NCBI GenBank assembly: GCA_020725925.1
Contig: DYTN01000002.1
Location: 44,621 to 108,620, forward strand
Direction of reading: 5' to 3'
Length of the DNA: 64,000 nt
Source: Methanobacteriota archaeon
GTDB taxonomy: Archaea; Thermoplasmatota; Thermoplasmata; UBA10834
Shown here: positions 23,604-58,522 of the stretch, piece after piece
Numbering within the stretch: the stretch's first letter is position 1
Layout of the letters: each line of letters starts with the position of its first letter
Translations under genes and position numbers: made by a program
The notes under the pieces: generated by a model
Seen by the model: the letters and a program-made list of their open reading frames with translations, nothing else
Databases searched by the model: none
What the model was told of the DNA's origin: nothing

Positions 23604-24554
23604 TCAGAGCGACAGGCCCATCGGGAGGCGCATGACGGCTCCGACCAGGAGGTACACGATCCCGGCCGCGATGACGGCCAGGATCTCTGAAAGCACGGCC
23701 TCCCCCGTGGAGATGTCGTTCGCAACGCTGATGGCTCTGCTTGCGATTGTGACGAGCCACACCAGGCCGACCAGGGCGATGAGCAACAGGACGCCGCCCG
23801 CGGCGATTGCCTGGTCGAGCTCATCAGGGGTCCAATCCTGGACATCTGTCATGTCGAGGCCCTGGAACCCCACGGTGAACAGCACCAAGAGCACGATCTC
23901 CAGGAACACGTATGCAGGGTAGACGTAGCCGAGGAGGGTGAGGGTGGCCGTACGCTCACCCCTCCCGCCGAAGATGTTCTTGGCGATTACCGCGGCAGCG
24001 ACGCCGAACAACAGGAAGGCGAGCAGCGAGATCACCCAGCTGACGAATCCCTGGAATGCAACCTCCAGCGCGTCGCCCGTGCTGTATCCCAGCACCTCGC
24101 CCATGTCGGCCGTCACGAGCGTGCTCACCACTGCGGACAGGATCGAGAACACGACGACGATGGCCAAAGCCCTCTGGAGGTTGGTGGACAGGTAGAGCGA
24201 CACGCAGGCCTTGGTGGGAGAGTACAGGATCCTGACGAGGTCCGCGAAGTCCGGCCTCGGCGCGTGCTTCGGCTGCATGTAGAGCCCGGGGTAGTGGCTG
24301 ATGTGGACGTGCGGATGCGCGGGCGAATGGAAATCCGAAGGCGGTATCTGTTCGACGAAGTGCGCGGGGAGCGCCTGCCTGATGGTGGTGCCGCACCTCG
24401 GGCAGTTCGTGACGCCGGTCCCATCCCCCAACGACTGGAGATAGCCAGACGCTCTGAACCCGCACGACGGACATGCGATGTCGTGCGCATACACGACGGA
24501 CTCTGGGATCATGCCTTGGGCCAATCGTGTCCAGAGGATATGATTGTTGCCCAC
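23604..24554 (-). CDS. Yip1-family multi-pass membrane protein with an N-terminal double zinc ribbon.
   Basis: - N-terminus CPSCGFRASG...CPRCGTTI.
- Then 5 TM helices with a Yip1-like pattern. Confidence 0.65.
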   Translation of the reverse strand: MGNNHILWTRLAQGMIPESVVYAHDIACPSCGFRASGYLQSLGDGTGVTNCPRCGTTIRQALPAHFVEQIPPSDFHSPAHPHVHISHYPGLYMQPKHAPRPDFADLVRILYSPTKACVSLYLSTNLQRALAIVVVFSILSAVVSTLVTADMGEVLGYSTGDALEVAFQGFVSWVISLLAFLLFGVAAAVIAKNIFGGRGERTATLTLLGYVYPAYVFLEIVLLVLFTVGFQGLDMTDVQDWTPDELDQAIAAGGVLLLIALVGLVWLVTIASRAISVANDISTGEAVLSEILAVIAAGIVYLLVGAVMRLPMGLSL

Positions 24555-24573
24555 GGCCGTCGGGGAAAATCAA

Positions 24574-24675
24574 TGGAGCCACTGGAGGGTATTGAACCCC
24601 CGGCCTGCGGTTTACGAAACCGCCGCTCTTTAGCGGCACGCGCGAGAGCGTGTGCAACCGCTGAGCTACAGTGGC
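24574..24675 (-). tRNA. tRNA-Thr (anticodon CGU) with encoded CCA and a ~29-nt insertion (putative intron) in the D-loop region.
   Basis: - Reverse complement: acceptor GCCACUG/CAGUGGC + U + CCA.
- Anticodon arm GCGGU-UUCGUAA-ACCGC.
- T-arm GGGGG-UUCAAUA-CCCUC.
- D-stem GCUC...GAGC is interrupted by a GC-rich hairpin (GCACACGC-UCUC-GCGCGUGC). Confidence 0.55.
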
Positions 24676-24814
24676 AGGCAGGTTGTTGTGAAGATTGTCT
24701 TGCTAGTTAAGGCTTTTGACATTTGACTTGTTCGATTGGGCGCATCCAGTCACGCCGCGGGAGAAACGAATGTCTTTTTATGAGTGGCACATTATCTACC
24801 ACGGGTCGCCCTGA

Positions 24815-39524: not shown

Positions 39525-40559
39525 CTACCAGCTGTCGCTCAGGACGAACGCTCCGAGCTTCGTCTTCACGAGCCTGACCTGCTCTCCCTTTCGAGAGAAT
39601 CCGGGTGGCTTTGGCACGTCCAGCGGGGCGCTCGTCTCGGGGTCGAGCACCTGCAGCTCCCGGTCCTTGTCCACGAGGACGACCGCCTTGCGGATCCCTG
39701 CCTTCGCCTCCACCAGCGCGCACTCGCCCGCGTCCCTGACCCTGATCGGGTGGTCCTCTCCGGTCCTGAGATCTATGCCGTGCACGACCCCCCGGGACAT
39801 GCCCCTCACGAAGTAAAGCTTCCCAGCGCTCTCGACTATGTCCCCCTTTGAGAACCCTGGGAGGCGCACCAGGAACGTCATCCTGTATATCTCCTGGCCC
39901 GCCCGCCTGCCCCACAGGCTAGAGGACTCCTTGTACTCGGCGCACCTGCTCTCCTGCAACTCGCGCGCGACGGACCTGGCGGATGAAATCGTGCTGAAGT
40001 AGAAGTCCAGGCCGCCCTTGACCCTCTCGGCCTTGCTCAGGAACACCTCCCTGCTGGACTTCCTCATGGACGCGACCCTCTCCCTGACGAGGCGCTCCAT
40101 GTCCGCCTCCGCCTGCCTGCCCAGAGAGCGCTCCGGCCCGCGCACCTGCAGGATGGCCTCGTAGTACTTCCCCTGCTGCTTCGAGCACTCGGTACACGAC
40201 CCGCGCTTGACCCGCACGATGGTCCCCAGCTCGCGCCTGAACTCGTGGCCTTCGACCGAGAGCAGGAGGTCGACCTTCGCCGCGAGATTCCTCTCGTCCC
40301 TCTCTGAGAGCTGCACGGAAATGTCCAGGAGCTTCGACTCCTTGGGCATGGCCAATGCGCTCTCGACCGCCAGCTCGGCCGCCTCGCGCACGGAGCCGAT
40401 GTCCTCCCAGCCCTTGGCCGTCTGCATGGCCGAGCAGTGCGCGCACAGCGTGAGGTCGACATGGTCCGGGAGAGTGGGATGCACGTGCTTCTTCGCATAG
40501 CAGACGCTGCACAGAGAGCCTATCAGCTCCTCCTCGCGCCCGCACTCGACACAGAACAC
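39525..40559 (-). CDS. Archaeal NMD3-family protein (60S export adaptor homolog).
   Basis: N-terminal Cys clusters MFCVECG..CSVC..CAHC..C.EC followed by an NMD3-like OB/SH3 region. Length 344 aa is typical. Confidence 0.7.
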   Translation of the reverse strand: MFCVECGREEELIGSLCSVCYAKKHVHPTLPDHVDLTLCAHCSAMQTAKGWEDIGSVREAAELAVESALAMPKESKLLDISVQLSERDERNLAAKVDLLLSVEGHEFRRELGTIVRVKRGSCTECSKQQGKYYEAILQVRGPERSLGRQAEADMERLVRERVASMRKSSREVFLSKAERVKGGLDFYFSTISSARSVARELQESRCAEYKESSSLWGRRAGQEIYRMTFLVRLPGFSKGDIVESAGKLYFVRGMSRGVVHGIDLRTGEDHPIRVRDAGECALVEAKAGIRKAVVLVDKDRELQVLDPETSAPLDVPKPPGFSRKGEQVRLVKTKLGAFVLSDSW

Positions 40560-40856
40560 CTAGACCATCCTCGCCATCTGCGCGTGAGGGACCTCGCCTA
40601 TCCTGATGACGCACCCGGGGTCGATGAAGCCGCGCCTGACGGCTATCTCGAGCGTCTTCTCCCCCACGAGGTTGGCGATCGTGGCCATCTCCAGCCTGTT
40701 GACGAGCATCTCCTCGTCCGCCCTCTCGCCCCTGTAGAAACCCTCGGAAACCTGCAGCTTCAGGTCCCTGGACCTGAAGGTCTTGCCGACTATGTCCTCG
40801 TCGCACGCGGCCACCAGGACCTCGACCCCTTTCCTGTACACCTTGACTGTGATCAT
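40560..40856 (-). CDS. DUF424-family small archaeal protein.
   Basis: 98 aa. Overlaps the MCM stop and abuts the NMD3 start. Family call from memory. Confidence 0.5.
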   Translation of the reverse strand: MITVKVYRKGVEVLVAACDEDIVGKTFRSRDLKLQVSEGFYRGERADEEMLVNRLEMATIANLVGEKTLEIAVRRGFIDPGCVIRIGEVPHAQMARMV

Positions 40857-42976
40857 CCGATGCGCTCCTCGCTCGCCAGCTTGAAGTATCCCGGCTGCGG
40901 GGAGTACACCTCACCGGCGTCGCTGAGGCGCTTGAGGAGCGCCCGCACGCGGTCCTCCGCGATGTTCTCCGAGCCCGCCTTCTGTATGAGCTCCTCGGCG
41001 CTCACGCCCCTCCTCGGGTCCGAGAGCGTCTGTATCAAGCTCCTGAGCACGTAGATCTGCTCCCTCTGGCTCCTGCTGGTGCCGGTGGCTATGAGGTCTA
41101 TGTCCCTTCTCCCGCCCTCACTGGCGACCTTGGCCAGGTAGTACTCGACGATCTTGATCGCGCGGCTGGCATCCTCCGAGTTGATTATGGGGCTGAGGCG
41201 CGCGCGTGCGCTCGCCTCCGACAGCCGGATGAGTGCCTCCAGCTGCCTGGCCGTGATGGGGACCGAGGCCTCCTCGCCCTCTCCCAGCTTCCTGATGGAG
41301 ATGTAGTACCCCTCGAGCGTGCGCGTGGCCTCGTCGCTGAGGATGGGCGTGATGCGCTTGCTGTACGCGACGTACTTCCTCAGGAACTCCCGGTCCATCG
41401 CCGGGACAAGGCCCGTGCTGTCCCGGAGTATCTCGGCCGTGTCCACGGCCGTGATCTGCTCGGGCGCCTCGTGGAGCTTCACCTCTCCCCGCCTGTGCGC
41501 CTTGAGTATGTGCGCCGCGACGTTCCTGTCCTGCTCTGCATCCGGCCTGTCCGTCATGGTGAATATGGCGTCGAACCTGGACAGGAGCGCGGGCGGGAGG
41601 TCGATCTGCTCCGCGATGTTCCTGCTCTCGTCGAACCTGCCGTACTTCGGGTTCGCGGCCCCGAGCACGGCGCACCTCGACTGGAGCGTGGCCGTGATGC
41701 CGGCCTTCGCGACTGATATCGTGCCCTGCTCGAGGCTCTCGTGTATGCTCGACCTGTCCTGGTCGTTCATCTTGTCCAGCTCGTCTATGCATGCCAGACC
41801 CTTGTCCGCGAGCACGAGCGCGCCCGCCTCGAGGGTCCATCTGCCCTCGCCGAACTCGTCCTTGACTGCCGCTGCGGTGAGCCCGGCGGCGGAGGACGAC
41901 TTCCCGGAGGTGTAGATGCCTCTGGGGGCGAGCTGCGACATGTAGCGGAGTATCTGGGACTTGGCCGTGCCAGGGTCGCCGATCAGAGCTATGTGTATGT
42001 CCCCCCGGATGCGCGTGCCGTCGTCCATGACCTTGCCCACGCCCCCGAAGAGCTGCAGCGCGAGGGCCTCCTTCTCCTGGTCGTACCCGTAGATGGTCGG
42101 GGAGATGGACGCGATTACCTTGTCGAAGGCGTCCGGGCTTCCTGCGAACTCGCGGATCCTGACCTCGTCCTCCGGGGTGATGAGCACCTCCTCGTACTCC
42201 TTCTCCTCGTACTCGATCGAGTTGAGGTCCAGCTGGATCTCGAAGAGCGTGGACTTGACCTGCCCGCCCTTCTGCGTGCTCCTCAGGATCCCGTTCAGTA
42301 TGACCCTGTCGCCCGGGGAGATGCGCCCGGAGAGATCGTCCTCGATGTAGCCTACTAGGCGCTCAGGCTGCGCCCCGCCCCTTAGGCCCTCCGGGGGCTC
42401 CTGGATCTCTATCTTCTGTGTGTCCACGAACCTGGACGGGTCCGTGAGAAGCCTGAACTTGGTCGAGCCCGTGCCCCTGCCGCACCCGCCCTCCTCCTTC
42501 GAGCACTCGAGAGGCTCATGGAACAGCATCCCCTCCTGCTCCACCGTGATCCTGTGCCCGCACCTGGCGCACTCGAACTCTGCCACGGTGACCCTCGGCC
42601 TGACCTCGGTCGCCTTCCGGACGAGCCCCTCGATGGACACGAAATTCCCGAGGTGCTTCGCCCTCAGCTTCCGTATCTCTATGCGGGAGTCCCGCGGAAG
42701 GTCCTTGATCCTGAAGTGGACGAACGGGTTCGTCAGGGCGTGAGAGACCATGCGCCTCAGGGCCTCTTCTGCAGAGCGGATCGACTGCGTCGGGTTGACG
42801 AGGATGTAGTTCGCGAGGTCGGGGTCGAACTTCTCGACGGCAGAGAAGTCGATGTAGATGCTCCTGACATCCGGGTACAGGTCAGCTATCGCTGATACAT
42901 GGTGCCTGTGCTCCTGCCCTCCCAGGAACTCTTCCCAGATGGCGACGAGGTCCTCGGGAGTATACTCCTTGGGCGT
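40853..42976 (-). CDS. mcm: MCM replicative helicase. The N-terminal domain A is encoded in frame upstream of the first ATG; the putative start position holds ACG.
   Basis: - AAA+ motifs IHIALIGDPGTAKSQ and SRFDAIF.
- Zinc finger CARCGH..C..GGCG.
- The 75 in-frame codons upstream of ATG 42751 (PKEYTPEDLVAIWEEFL..YPDVRSIYIDFSAVEKFDPDLANYILVNPTQSIRSAEEAL) match MCM domain A.
- The codon after the upstream TGA is ACG (42976-42974), preceded by AAGGAG. Confidence 0.85.
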   Translation of the reverse strand, partial: TPKEYTPEDLVAIWEEFLGGQEHRHHVSAIADLYPDVRSIYIDFSAVEKFDPDLANYILVNPTQSIRSAEEALRRMVSHALTNPFVHFRIKDLPRDSRIEIRKLRAKHLGNFVSIEGLVRKATEVRPRVTVAEFECARCGHRITVEQEGMLFHEPLECSKEEGGCGRGTGSTKFRLLTDPSRFVDTQKIEIQEPPEGLRGGAQPERLVGYIEDDLSGRISPGDRVILNGILRSTQKGGQVKSTLFEIQLDLNSIEYEEKEYEEVLITPEDEVRIREFAGSPDAFDKVIASISPTIYGYDQEKEALALQLFGGVGKVMDDGTRIRGDIHIALIGDPGTAKSQILRYMSQLAPRGIYTSGKSSSAAGLTAAAVKDEFGEGRWTLEAGALVLADKGLACIDELDKMNDQDRSSIHESLEQGTISVAKAGITATLQSRCAVLGAANPKYGRFDESRNIAEQIDLPPALLSRFDAIFTMTDRPDAEQDRNVAAHILKAHRRGEVKLHEAPEQITAVDTAEILRDSTGLVPAMDREFLRKYVAYSKRITPILSDEATRTLEGYYISIRKLGEGEEASVPITARQLEALIRLSEASARARLSPIINSEDASRAIKIVEYYLAKVASEGGRRDIDLIATGTSRSQREQIYVLRSLIQTLSDPRRGVSAEELIQKAGSENIAEDRVRALLKRLSDAGEVYSPQPGYFKLASEERIG

Positions 42977-43067
42977 TCAGCTCCCCCCACAGTTCAGTGT
43001 CGATGCCCCTGCCCTTCCCTGACGACTTGGCAAAAGGGGAAGAGGAATCGACAATGTGATACTAAAG

Positions 43068-43610
43068 CTACGTGGTCCGTTCATCTTTGCTCCTTTGGAC
43101 TGCACGTAGCATTCGCTGCTGCGCAGCGACGACCTCGGCGCTCGTCTCGACAGAAGCGTACTCTTCGAGCCTCTCCCTGTTCATCGATATGAAAGTCGGC
43201 CCCCACTTGAACCTGCTCATCAGATGCTCCGCCCGCTGCTTCTCGCCCAGGATGTAGAGCGATGCTGCGAGCGCCTCGGCGCTCGAGAGCTTCTGGGCCT
43301 TGCCGAAGTTCGTGGGGTTCGCGGCCACAAGGAACGGCAGCGCCCTGTGCCTGAGCCCTGCCCTCACCCTCGGGAACCTGTCGAGCTTGTTCCACGAGCA
43401 GTCGAGCACGAGCAGGCCCGCTCGGACGGACGCCCCGAGGTCCTCCCTGGACAACGCCTTCTCCGCCTCAGGGTCGAGCACCACGGCTCCCCTGGGTATC
43501 CTGGGGGCCTTCACCTCATGCAGGTCGCCGAGCCTCACGAGCTTCGCCGCTGTGCACTTCTTCGGGTCGTCCTCGCGCTCCATCAGGGCTAGGAGCCTAA
43601 CGTCAGCCAT
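43068..43610 (-). CDS. tsr3: Tsr3/DUF367 18S(16S) rRNA aminocarboxypropyltransferase.
   Basis: Conserved LDCSW and FGKAQKLSSAEA motifs. Size 180 aa. Confidence 0.75.
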   Translation of the reverse strand: MADVRLLALMEREDDPKKCTAAKLVRLGDLHEVKAPRIPRGAVVLDPEAEKALSREDLGASVRAGLLVLDCSWNKLDRFPRVRAGLRHRALPFLVAANPTNFGKAQKLSSAEALAASLYILGEKQRAEHLMSRFKWGPTFISMNRERLEEYASVETSAEVVAAQQRMLRAVQRSKDERTT

Positions 43611-56234: not shown

Positions 56235-56358
56235 CCTTCCGACCTGTCTGGAGCAGTTGATGGGGGTGGGGGGTTTTTATGGTTTCTGAATTGATGCTAC
56301 TAGCAGCTGTCAGGCAGATAACAGCTTAATATACAGGTCAAGGCACTGACTCGCTGAC

Positions 56359-57588
56359 ATGCCCTTGGACGAGTCGACCAGGTTTGTCATGAGGATGTTC
56401 TCGAAGCACTACAGGGAGGCGCCGCTCCATATGCCGGACCGGTTCTCCAAGCGCGAGTTCGGGTTCATGTTCTTCGACAGGCAGGGCATGGTCAGGCACG
56501 TCGGGTTCCCCCAGAGAGCGCAGCTGAAGAACTACCTCGTCGAGCAGGTGCCCGCGCATGTGTACTACTCATGTGCGTACTACGAAAAGCCAGATGCGCA
56601 GACGATGGCCGAGAAGAGCTGGCAGGGCGCGGATCTGATCTTCGATCTTGATGCGGATCACGTGGAAGGAGCCCAGGACCTTCCATACGCAAAGATGCTG
56701 GTGAGGGTGAAGGAGGAGGTCATCAGGCTCATCGACGAGTTCCTCCTGGGAGACCTCGGGTTCGACCAGGATGACCTCAGGATCGTCTTCTCCGGAGGCA
56801 GGGGATACCATGTGCACATCAGCGACCCCAAGGTGCTCAAGTTGAGCAGCCACGAGCGACGAGAGATCGTCGACTACATCACTGGCACGGACCTCGACAT
56901 AGACTGGGTGTTCCCATCGACAACCTTCGAGATCGGCAGGTTCAAGGACAGGGTGGACGCGGATAGGAAGCGCGCGATGCCCCTGGCATCGGAAGGTGGC
57001 TGGAGGGCGAGGATGAGGAAGGGAATAGACTCGCTCCTCGAGGAGCTGGAGAGGCTCACAAACACGGAGGCAACGATGCGCCTGGCCGAGATGTTCAAGG
57101 ACTCCAAGCGCGAGATAGGCAAGAAGACAATCGAGGGGTTGTACAAGGACCTCTTCGGAGGCAGAAAAGGAAGACGCGGAGTGGACAGGATGAGGGACGA
57201 GAACACCTTCGAGGTGTTCTCCGAGAAGAGACACGCTGATGCCTTCATGGACCTGGTGGACATGCGCGTGAGGGTCAAGATGAAGGGGGAAACGGACGAG
57301 CCCGTCACCTCGGACATCAAGAGGCTCATCAGGCTTCCGAGCTCCCTTCACGGCAAGACGGGGTTCGAGGTCGTGCCACTCGACAGGGACAGGTTGGACG
57401 AGTTCGACCCGTTCAGAGACGCTGTGCCCGAAACACTCGGGGATGAGGCCGTCGAGATCGTGCTCGAGAATCCCGTGCAGCTGGATCTACGGGATGAGCG
57501 GTTCGACCTCGGGCCCGGCAAGGCCGAGGTTCCAACGTTCGCCGCGGTCCACCTCATCTGCAGGAAGCAGGCGAGGATCGGACCGTGA
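56359..57588 (+). CDS. priS: DNA primase small (catalytic) subunit PriS.
   Basis: Prim-Pol signatures FGFMFFD, DLDADH and RLPSSLHGKTG. TATA-like CTTAATATAC ~30 nt upstream. Confidence 0.8.
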   Translation: MPLDESTRFVMRMFSKHYREAPLHMPDRFSKREFGFMFFDRQGMVRHVGFPQRAQLKNYLVEQVPAHVYYSCAYYEKPDAQTMAEKSWQGADLIFDLDADHVEGAQDLPYAKMLVRVKEEVIRLIDEFLLGDLGFDQDDLRIVFSGGRGYHVHISDPKVLKLSSHERREIVDYITGTDLDIDWVFPSTTFEIGRFKDRVDADRKRAMPLASEGGWRARMRKGIDSLLEELERLTNTEATMRLAEMFKDSKREIGKKTIEGLYKDLFGGRKGRRGVDRMRDENTFEVFSEKRHADAFMDLVDMRVRVKMKGETDEPVTSDIKRLIRLPSSLHGKTGFEVVPLDRDRLDEFDPFRDAVPETLGDEAVEIVLENPVQLDLRDERFDLGPGKAEVPTFAAVHLICRKQARIGP

Positions 57589-57682
57589 GCTGGGTCCTGG
57601 CCCGCGATTGCCCAGCTTGTCGTCCACCTTGAGATTCCAGCGCGCAAAACTATTTATCAAGTACCACTCATTTAAACACGCG

Positions 57683-58522
57683 ATGCCGACATCAGGCAAG
57701 GTCCTCGAAGACTCCATCCGTCTGAGCAGGATCAGGAAGATCAAGCTCACGCTCTACCTCGTCCAGGCGGTGATGCTGGTGGTCCTCGCCATCGTGGTGG
57801 TGTTCGTCGTCGGTGGGGCGCAGCTCCAGCCCGTCCTGTTCATGCCTTTCGACTCGTTCCTAGCGGTCGTGGTGCTTCTCCTGCTGATCATATGCCTCGA
57901 GAGCTTCTTCTTCCGGATACTCGAGATCAGGTTCGCCAGGAGCTCGAGCGCGAGACATCTGATGGCCAAGAACTCGATGAAACGGGCTCTGCTGATCGCA
58001 ATCGTCACAGGCGTCCTGGCGGCCGTGCTAGCAGTCCCTGCAATCAGGGGTGCGCTCGAGGGAACGGGCAGCAGCTCGACAGACATCACCGCGAGCAATG
58101 TTCCACCATCCTTCTGGGCATCAGACCCACTCGCCCTCATGAGCGCAAAAGAGGTGGTGGTCTCCTCAACGAGGACGGTCCAGATCTACCTGCTCGACGA
58201 CGAAGTGTTCGACATGTACTGGGGCACGGAGAACGCGATGAACGCCCTGTACTCCTTCAGGCTCAACAAGGACAACTACATCGTGGAGGACCAGCTGGTA
58301 ATCGATGTGCCCGACCAGGGCTATGTGAAGTACCACGTCGTCCTCAACGACATGGACAACCCGACCACGTCCGCGACGGTGGAGGTGGTCAGGGAGATGT
58401 CCGGGACCTTCACGGGCATCGTCTCCCTCCTACTGATTTCGTTCGTGGCGGCGAACGTGGCGTGGTTCGCGTACCTGATCCCGATCGAGCGCAAGTACTC
58501 CGCGGGATCGATCTACAAGTGA
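57683..58522 (+). CDS. Hypothetical membrane protein (3-4 TM with extracytoplasmic domain).
   Basis: ATG 57683 after an AT-rich box (TTTAAACA). Confidence 0.5.
   Translation: MPTSGKVLEDSIRLSRIRKIKLTLYLVQAVMLVVLAIVVVFVVGGAQLQPVLFMPFDSFLAVVVLLLLIICLESFFFRILEIRFARSSSARHLMAKNSMKRALLIAIVTGVLAAVLAVPAIRGALEGTGSSSTDITASNVPPSFWASDPLALMSAKEVVVSSTRTVQIYLLDDEVFDMYWGTENAMNALYSFRLNKDNYIVEDQLVIDVPDQGYVKYHVVLNDMDNPTTSATVEVVREMSGTFTGIVSLLLISFVAANVAWFAYLIPIERKYSAGSIYK

Follow-up and report, generated by a model that had tools for sequence, protein, structure and literature searches.

An ACG codon as the probable, evolutionarily maintained translation start of the MCM helicase gene in an uncultured Thermoplasmata lineage

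Where does translation of an archaeal replicative helicase begin when the frame that encodes its N-terminal domain offers no canonical start codon? The question is raised by the gene for the helicase MCM in a stretch of DNA of 64,000 nucleotides (nt), here called the window, from a member of an uncultured lineage of Thermoplasmata (contig DYTN01000002.1 of assembly GCA_020725925.1, positions 44,621 to 108,620). An open reading frame (ORF) finder with the start set ATG/GTG/TTG calls this gene from an ATG that is codon 76 of a longer frame. A first reading of the letters alone (the preliminary description) had pointed out that MCM domain A is encoded ahead of this ATG, in a run of codons that begins with ACG. 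From the comparison of orthologous loci we consider it likely that this ACG (42976..42974) is a genuine and evolutionarily maintained start of MCM translation in the lineage; the best reading is that it is a near-cognate start, assisted by a Shine-Dalgarno (SD) sequence and long maintained in MCM. The whole case rests on sequence comparison. The following features are at issue:

40853..42976, minus strand: full-length MCM coding sequence as proposed, with an ACG start, 707 codons and its stop at 40855..40853
42974..42976, minus strand: proposed initiation codon ACG, from the comparison of the homologous codon in the window and 120 loci
42977..42979, minus strand: in-frame TGA that abuts the ACG and closes the frame, lying in the spacer between G-run and start
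42749..42751, minus strand: first canonical in-frame start, ATG (codon 76), the ORF finder call, giving 632 amino acids (aa) without domain A
42965..42970, minus strand: AAGGAG, codons 3 and 4 (Lys-Glu), 3 nt downstream of the ACG

The start position of mcm

Read from the ACG, the frame continues CCC AAG GAG TAT ACT CCC GAG GAC and stays open for 75 codons, ACG onward, with no ATG, GTG or TTG before the ATG at 42751. In the 707-aa translation Pfam recognizes MCM_N (residues 35-80, 26.3 bits), MCM_OB (100.2), the MCM P-loop domain (310.3) and MCM_lid (89.5), all of them intact and with scores above the curated cut-offs, and residues 12-120 align with residues 16-121 of the N-domain of Methanothermobacter thermautotrophicus MCM in the crystal structure 1LTL (E = 4e-16). 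The MCM_N and 1LTL matches confirm that domain A is encoded in frame 5' of the first ATG and that a start at 42751 would drop it, as the preliminary description had held; the Met at codon 76 is itself a conserved internal residue (alignment column 75). By domain set, orthology and genomic context, the window protein is an archaeal MCM replicative helicase. The in-frame TGA (42979..42977) and the ACG that follows it were both found on the minus strand as described.

We compared the DNA of orthologous mcm loci from 40 species-representative genomes and 80 metagenome contigs, 120 in all, with that of the window, scoring as start codon the codon directly 5' of CCN-AAR-GAR-TAY in each locus. The 40 genome loci are regarded as orthologous because the gene order tsr3-mcm-DUF424-nmd3 is common to all of them. 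The codons found at the homologous position were:

Window and 120 loci: ACG 75, ATG 37, GTG 5, CTG 3, ATA 1, no others
40 genomes: ACG 20, ATG 15, GTG 4, CTG 1, ATA 0
80 metagenome contigs: ACG 54, ATG 22, GTG 1, CTG 2, ATA 1
Dereplicated set, n=111 including the window: ACG 66, ATG 36, GTG 5, CTG 3, ATA 1

Every codon at the start position in the 121 loci is therefore either ATG or a single-base neighbour of ATG. All 75 Thr-type codons there are ACG, and ACC, ACA and ACT do not occur at this position in any of the 121. Internal Thr residues behave otherwise: when 20 of the 21 ACG genomes were aligned (L029 was left out as too short), none of the 20 invariant Thr columns was monomorphic at the codon level, ACG accounting for only about 45% of the Thr codons in them, vs position 1, which is ACG in all 21 ACG genomes. 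The significance of the ACG comes from this conservation at a homologous site, in 75 of 121 loci with no synonymous variant; by itself the pattern G6-N6-ACG is no rarity in the window (2 observed vs 0.96 expected).

The ACG is found in a closed chromosome of 1.98 Mb (L003, OY970070.1), and the contigs that have it stem from many projects with no connection to one another. Parsimony on a neighbour-joining tree built from 39 full-length MCM proteins calls for at least 8 changes of the start codon, with ATG at the root; ACG fills most of a deep clade of 27 taxa, in which several ATG taxa and one CTG taxon are nested, and pairwise synonymous differences among ACG taxa are about 0.58. By this comparison the ACG state is old and repeatedly inherited, neither a recent lesion nor an artefact of assembly.

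The boundary of coding sequence falls at the same place. The ratio of nonsynonymous to synonymous change (dN/dS) over codons 2-25 is 0.062 in ACG taxa vs 0.050 in taxa with ATG or GTG, and over codons 26-75 it is 0.133 in ACG taxa; in the 45 nt upstream of the start, computed in the subset that aligns without gaps, the ratio is 0.77. Codon 2 is an invariant Pro for which all four synonyms are used (CCG 46, CCT 30, CCC 23, CCA 21), and because of this free synonym use under an invariant residue we take codon 2 to be translated. On the other side, a stop lies directly 5' of the start in the window and in many relatives (TGA stands there in some ATG loci too, L009 and L026), and the close relatives L008, L012 and L013 differ by 1-nt indels just upstream (GCTGA-ACG, GCTGAA-ACG and GCTGAT-ACG), those of L008 and L013 being insertions at the site of the TGA. 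Further in-frame stops lie upstream at varying distances, and in most loci no canonical start stands between the nearest such stop and the start position. The ratio of 0.77, the indels and the stops together mark the flank upstream as non-coding, and we exclude upstream initiation because of the TGA at -1 in the window and the 1-nt indels in its close relatives. Downstream, ACG taxa meet their next canonical codon of the frame at codon 10, 12, 26, 36, 72 or 75, depending on the species, so that there is no conserved internal start. Translation would thus have to begin between the codon after the stop and codon 2, an interval in which the ACG is the sole codon.

Public annotation bears the trace of this codon. 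A search with the protein found 120 close homologues in metagenome-assembled genomes of Thermoplasmata and in metagenomes, where NCBI and JGI name them MCM; their identity is 81-93%, with 91-100% of the query covered. The 632-aa product started at ATG 42751 is itself absent from the records. About half are exactly 707 aa long and start MPKEYTPEDL at the position of the window's ACG, as the orthologues with ATG do; among these relatives we found none that truly starts at the equivalent of 42751, which the preliminary description had named as the observation that would overturn its view. The others range from 642 to 736 aa, some cut at assorted internal GTG or ATG codons and others extended upstream with T, I or V before PKEY, odd lengths that we attribute to the failure of gene callers at a non-canonical start. 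For this clade, the majority of the best public MCM calls have a wrong start (642 to 736 aa vs 707), with consequences for domain annotation, for alignments of marker genes and for estimates of completeness. Standard prokaryotic gene callers do not recognize ACG, and other non-canonical starts are probably missed in the same way.

Weak start codons in MCM extend beyond the ACG clade. In the nearest outgroup, which is Methanomassiliicoccales-like (L041, L043-L047 and L058), the homologous position holds TTG, in the context GAAGGTG-N6-TTG CCG ATC GAT TAT. One of its members, L045, has a frame-breaking indel between the SD (GGTG) and the TTG, and the stretch 5' of the TTG is for that reason taken to be non-coding in the outgroup as well. 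In the group and in the nearest outgroup that shares this N-terminus, MCM mostly has weak starts (ACG, CTG, ATA, GTG, TTG), a hint that production of the helicase at a low or adjustable level is favoured.

Sequence elements upstream of the start codon

The features upstream of the ACG in the window, the conserved blocks among them being read from an alignment of 41 regions 5' of mcm, are the following:

42981..42988, minus strand: Shine-Dalgarno-like GGGGGGAG, with a G6 run at 42988..42983 and a 6-nt spacer to the ACG
42999..43019, minus strand: partly conserved leader block GGGAAGGGCAGGGGCATCGAC, of which (G)CATCGA(C) is retained in most relatives
43029..43039, minus strand: conserved block CCCCTTTTGCC, with consensus ACCCTTTTGCC in the alignment
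43059..43066, minus strand: TATA-box-like TTTAGTAT, within the strongly conserved block cTTTwGTATcacat, just after the tsr3 stop

The preliminary description had the ACG preceded by AAGGAG. This hexamer lies downstream, at 42970..42965, and what really precedes the ACG is GGGGGGAG followed by CTGA. As a ribosome-binding site AAGGAG was rejected: besides its position, it reads AAAGAA, AAGGAA or AAGGAT in relatives, and at SD spacing after it there is nothing like a start codon. The run of G, in contrast, is present throughout. In all 111 dereplicated loci a G-run ends 6-8 nt before the start codon; it has 3-6 bases, and in 104 of the loci it has 5 or 6. Such a run would presumably pair with CCUCC at the 3' end of 16S rRNA; Rfam found no 16S rRNA gene in the 64-kb window. 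In other ORFs of the window, GGAGG or a run of G stands 5-9 nt ahead of the first ATG or GTG (first-in-frame starts from the ORF scan), and SD-led initiation looks normal in this organism.

The length of the run goes with the start codon. G6 is found in 65 of 66 ACG loci, in all three CTG loci and in the single ATA locus, vs 9 of 36 ATG loci and none of the five GTG loci; pooled, 69 of 70 loci with ACG, CTG or ATA have it, with a single exception among these weak starts, vs 9 of 41 with ATG or GTG. For ACG vs ATG, Fisher's test gives p = 6.5e-16, a value not corrected for phylogeny. The contrast can be seen between close pairs, with ATG and G5 in one member and ACG and G6 in the other (L111/L005 at 94% nt identity, L018/L029 at 93%, L073/L062 at 87%); among the five closest ATG/ACG pairs it holds for these three, which repeat the pattern independently, and the ATG loci of the other two retain G6. 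On the tree, G6 is common to the whole clade that has weak starts, and the basal ATG and GTG clades have G4-G5. In these alignments a strong SD appears obligatory with ACG, CTG or ATA and dispensable with ATG. Prokaryotes in general tend to have a stronger or more conserved SD where the start codon is weaker (Belinky, Rogozin & Koonin 2017, PMC5622118), and the coupling of G6 to ACG, CTG and ATA, with G4-G5 common at ATG and GTG, is of the same kind. That study covered AUG, GUG and UUG only; the present case concerns a non-canonical codon within one orthologous gene.

The intergenic region between tsr3 and mcm holds three blocks conserved across the clade (42999..43066; L001-L040), namely cTTTwGTATcacat, ACCCTTTTGCC and (G)CATCGA(C); the conserved blocks of the leader include ACCCTTTTGCC and GCATCGAC. 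If TTTAGTAT is the promoter, the leader would measure roughly 55-60 nt, and CCCCTTTTGCC would probably mark the 5' end of the mRNA or lie close to it. The intergenic blocks may serve as a promoter or initiator element, as a regulator site, or in sequestration of the SD. RNAalifold, applied to 37 leaders, pairs the CCCUU of the CCCCTTTTGCC block with the G-run of the SD and gives only these five CCCUU/GGGGG pairs (-3.0 kcal/mol). None of these five pairs shows covariation, all being invariant or changed on one side only; the single-sequence fold of the leader is not more stable than shuffles (z = +1.28), and Rfam has no match in the leader region. On these three grounds a structured leader or riboswitch-like element was rejected. 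A hairpin drawn by hand between CCCUUUUGCC and GGGAAGGG was dropped, as it is not retained in all lineages.

Several ACG relatives (L001, L003, L005, L078, L094 and others) read GGGGGGAGATGAACG, in which an ATG 4 nt upstream of the ACG, out of frame and only 2 nt past the SD, opens an overlapping ORF of 8 codons; the same site is CTG in the window, and TTG, ATT or nothing in other relatives. It is probably incidental, and could modulate initiation.

Initiation at ACG and its alternatives

The comparison of loci shows, at one and the same position, the marks of a near-cognate start: a codon one base from AUG at a site held only by ATG and its neighbours, conservation at the codon level, a coding boundary, and an associated SD whose G-run has the proper spacing. 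In the mechanism that we propose, an mRNA with the short leader estimated above would bind the 30S subunit through its G-rich SD GGGGGGAG, anchored by the 3' end of 16S rRNA, and the ACG 6-7 nt downstream would be put in the P site. There the initiator Met-tRNA (anticodon CAU) would pair with positions 1 and 3 of the ACG, the mismatch in the middle being tolerated. The protein would start with Met, probably cleaved since Pro follows, and would be the same 707-aa MCM as in ATG relatives. A lower rate of initiation is likely, partly offset by the stronger SD. For the tRNA used, the efficiency, the promoter, the transcription start site and any selective reason we can only infer. In E. coli reporters, the protein made from an ACG start had Met at its N-terminus, and traces of Thr (preprint 10.1101/063800).

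Other explanations of the ACG can be weighed against the same data. Least probable of all, and refuted by the comparison of loci, is an error of sequencing or assembly that hides a real ATG, which the preliminary description had entertained as a base-call error: the window's codon, viewed alone, is one base off ATG, but ACG recurs at the same position in 74 other independently assembled loci (20 of the 40 genomes and 54 of the 80 contigs) from many independent projects, the closed chromosome included, while neighbouring third positions vary freely and the 5' flank co-varies with the codon (G6 vs G5). Hardly less remote is the loss of the start, with a truncated MCM whose translation begins at a canonical codon further inside the frame (ATG 42751 in the window, giving 632 aa without domain A). 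That ATG is indeed the first canonical start, and gene callers pick internal codons in many relatives, with products of 642-698 aa; the strong purifying selection on codons 2-25 and 26-75 in ACG taxa, the very different position of the first canonical codon between species, and the match of residues 12-120 to the structured N-domain of solved MCMs all speak against truncation. The suggestion of a recent start-codon mutation compensated by internal initiation falls with it, as ACG spans a deep clade, the N-terminal codons are constrained and the internal start is not conserved. At the same very low level we place an upstream start from which ribosomes reach the MCM frame by readthrough of the TGA, frameshifting or termination-reinitiation. 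The window does have a 42-codon ORF in the same frame that ends at the TGA (43105..42977), and the out-of-frame ATG of some relatives (gATGAACG) lies only 4 nt upstream; the upstream stretch, however, has no coding signature, is broken by 1-nt indels and by in-frame stops at variable distances, and in most loci holds no canonical start after the nearest in-frame stop, and the out-of-frame ATG is replaced by other codons or absent in other ACG taxa.

The two remaining alternatives accept the ACG in the DNA and alter how it is read; we hold both to be very improbable, the first slightly more so. It has a non-standard tRNA reading the ACG, either an initiator-like tRNA with a CGU anticodon or the elongator Thr-tRNA, to give an N-terminal Thr, as was seen on some of the ACG-initiated protein in one E. 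coli culture. The site switches among ATG, GTG, CTG and ATA, which is the near-cognate set of a CAU initiator and not of CGU. Such a tRNA would also lead one to expect other ACG-start genes, yet a scan of the 64-kb window for an SD-like motif followed by ACG and at least 100 open codons gave no credible candidate, and Pfam found no domain upstream of the canonical start in the other window ORFs with long gaps between stop and first start. In the other alternative, C-to-U editing of the mRNA would turn ACG into AUG before translation, a process known from start codons of plant organelles. The classic trace that it leaves in genomes, a start position with ACG in some orthologues and ATG in others, is seen here. 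Elsewhere in the gene, though, T>C-type nonsynonymous departures are absent (0 of 69 single-base changes in ACG taxa at otherwise invariant columns); ATA is not convertible to AUG by a C-to-U change, and CUG would become only UUG; and a stronger SD with ACG, CTG and ATA is expected of a weak codon rather than of one restored to AUG. We know of no mRNA editing system in archaea. Non-AUG initiation, the third possibility raised in the preliminary description, is favoured by every comparative test made here.

Several points weigh against SD-assisted initiation at the ACG, or limit what may be made of it. In E. coli reporters ACG belongs to the class of codons with 0.1-1% of the activity of AUG (preprint 10.1101/063800), and archaea are described with AUG, GUG and UUG starts, their initiation factor aIF1 discriminating against at least AUU (PMC4705826); given such figures and such stringency, an essential helicase started at ACG needs either very low demand or a context far more permissive than those measured elsewhere. 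The SD association seems to go back largely to one ancestral change from G5 to G6 and a few later losses from G6 to G5 in ATG lineages, and so comprises few independent events. At the second base of the start codon, C is found in 20 of the 27 taxa of the G6 clade, a share above the one that the commonest base has at 97% of the fourfold sites; as a ratio of C to T, 20:7 resembles the C-major fourfold sites (0.55:0.11). Near-neutral toggling at this base is inseparable from selection for a weak start, and in this respect the pattern is ambiguous.

Accepting the ACG as the start, one may go further and see in it a selected device, in which a weak start and a reinforced SD throttle the supply of MCM and make it sensitive to the stringency of start selection (activity of aIF1 and aIF2, growth state). 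We regard this as possible but rather doubtful. If true, it would amount to translational control of replication capacity, and mcm would be the earliest described case of a cellular gene in prokaryotes with a conserved start at ACG.

Neighbourhood of mcm and known non-canonical starts

The genes around mcm in the window are:

43068..43610, minus strand: tsr3, for a Tsr3-type ribosome biogenesis protein (Pfam Ribo_biogen_C), upstream of mcm
40560..40856, minus strand: DUF424 gene, downstream of mcm, its ATG overlapping the MCM stop (ATGA, 40853..40856)
39525..40559, minus strand: NMD3 gene, directly after DUF424, the end of which is one base before the NMD3 start

The tsr3 stop, TAG, lies at 43070..43068, and the region between tsr3 and mcm measures 91 nt. 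The genes mcm, DUF424 and nmd3 likely form an operon, and their overlap and adjacency suggest translational coupling. The gene for the replicative helicase in this way has ribosome-biogenesis genes on either side, and all 40 genomes conserve the block. Some loci of the comparison have peculiarities of their own. L034 and L037 both come from CP070748.1 ('bin352 chromosome', 1.70 Mb), where the tsr3-mcm-DUF424-nmd3 block occurs twice, in diverged versions that are separated by about 700 kb and both start mcm with ATG; either the segment has really been duplicated or the assembly is a chimera of two strains. The MCM frame of L010 has 776 codons vs 707, a difference that corresponds to an insertion of about 69 codons, and that of L038 stops after 535 codons in a contig that continues, which suggests a frameshift, an assembly error or a pseudogene.

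Elsewhere in the window, Rfam matches a tRNA at 24577..24675 (minus strand; 99 nt, 56.6 bits) that is missing from the ARAGORN results; judged by its length it may be an archaeal tRNA with an intron, and it lies inside a long, spurious-looking ORF of the plus strand (23691..24710). A gene for a PriS-like small subunit of DNA primase (56350..57588, plus strand) overlaps by about 300 nt an open frame at 57284..58522 (plus strand), the first part of which is an R/S-rich artefact of high GC content; the real downstream gene, for a membrane protein, probably starts near 57690. An ACG at 57296 (plus strand), which came up as a candidate start, was rejected as spurious: it overlaps the 3' end of PriS, and its 'N-terminus' is of low complexity and R/S-rich.

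Prokaryotic initiation is treated as a matter of ATG, GTG and TTG, with a few rare AUN and CUG cases, and to our knowledge ACG is not in the start list of genetic code table 11. It is absent, too, from annotated bacterial start codons (preprint 10.1101/063800). In the papers searched on ACG or on non-canonical prokaryotic starts we found no description of an archaeal ACG start. Deep conservation of such a start in a replication gene that is essential, together with a ribosome-binding site that co-varies, would extend the archaeal repertoire of start codons.

Among bacteria, the closest likeness is to infC, with its AUU, and to the rare CTG, ATT, ATC and ATA starts of table 11, where an inefficient start, which needs a good SD, has also been long kept in one housekeeping gene of a genome that otherwise relies on ATG, GTG and TTG. 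The AUU of infC is part of an autoregulatory loop, as IF3 itself rejects non-canonical starts. MCM, unlike IF3, has no known role in start-codon selection, and its product shows only helicase domains and no translation-factor domain in Pfam; the ACG of mcm may work like a weak-start throttle and is outside the infC regulatory class. Plant organelles offer a second likeness, since at the ACG starts of ndhD and psbL the codon that is ACG in some species is ATG in orthologues (for chloroplast non-AUG starts see PMC9845219). Unlike those edited sites, the mcm of this lineage has no other T>C pattern in the gene, and neither the ATA and CTG variants nor the strengthening of the SD fits editing.

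ACG initiation is familiar from viruses, as in VP2 of adeno-associated virus and the C' protein of Sendai virus. As in these and in eukaryotic cases, the start proposed here is one base from AUG and would presumably be read by the initiator Met-tRNA, and it was recognized, like eukaryotic non-AUG starts, by conserved coding potential 5' of the first AUG, the evidence that also revealed conserved non-AUG N-terminal extensions in human genes (PMC3105428). Archaeal aIF1 and aIF2 are homologous to the eukaryotic factors that set the stringency of start selection (PMC4705826), and mcm would offer a natural system for the handling of near-cognate codons by these eukaryote-like factors on SD-led mRNAs. 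The differences are that here the codon would be chosen by placement of the SD, not by scanning and Kozak context, and that the ACG would be the sole start of the main, essential product, rather than the start of an alternative isoform or extension as in eukaryotes and their viruses.

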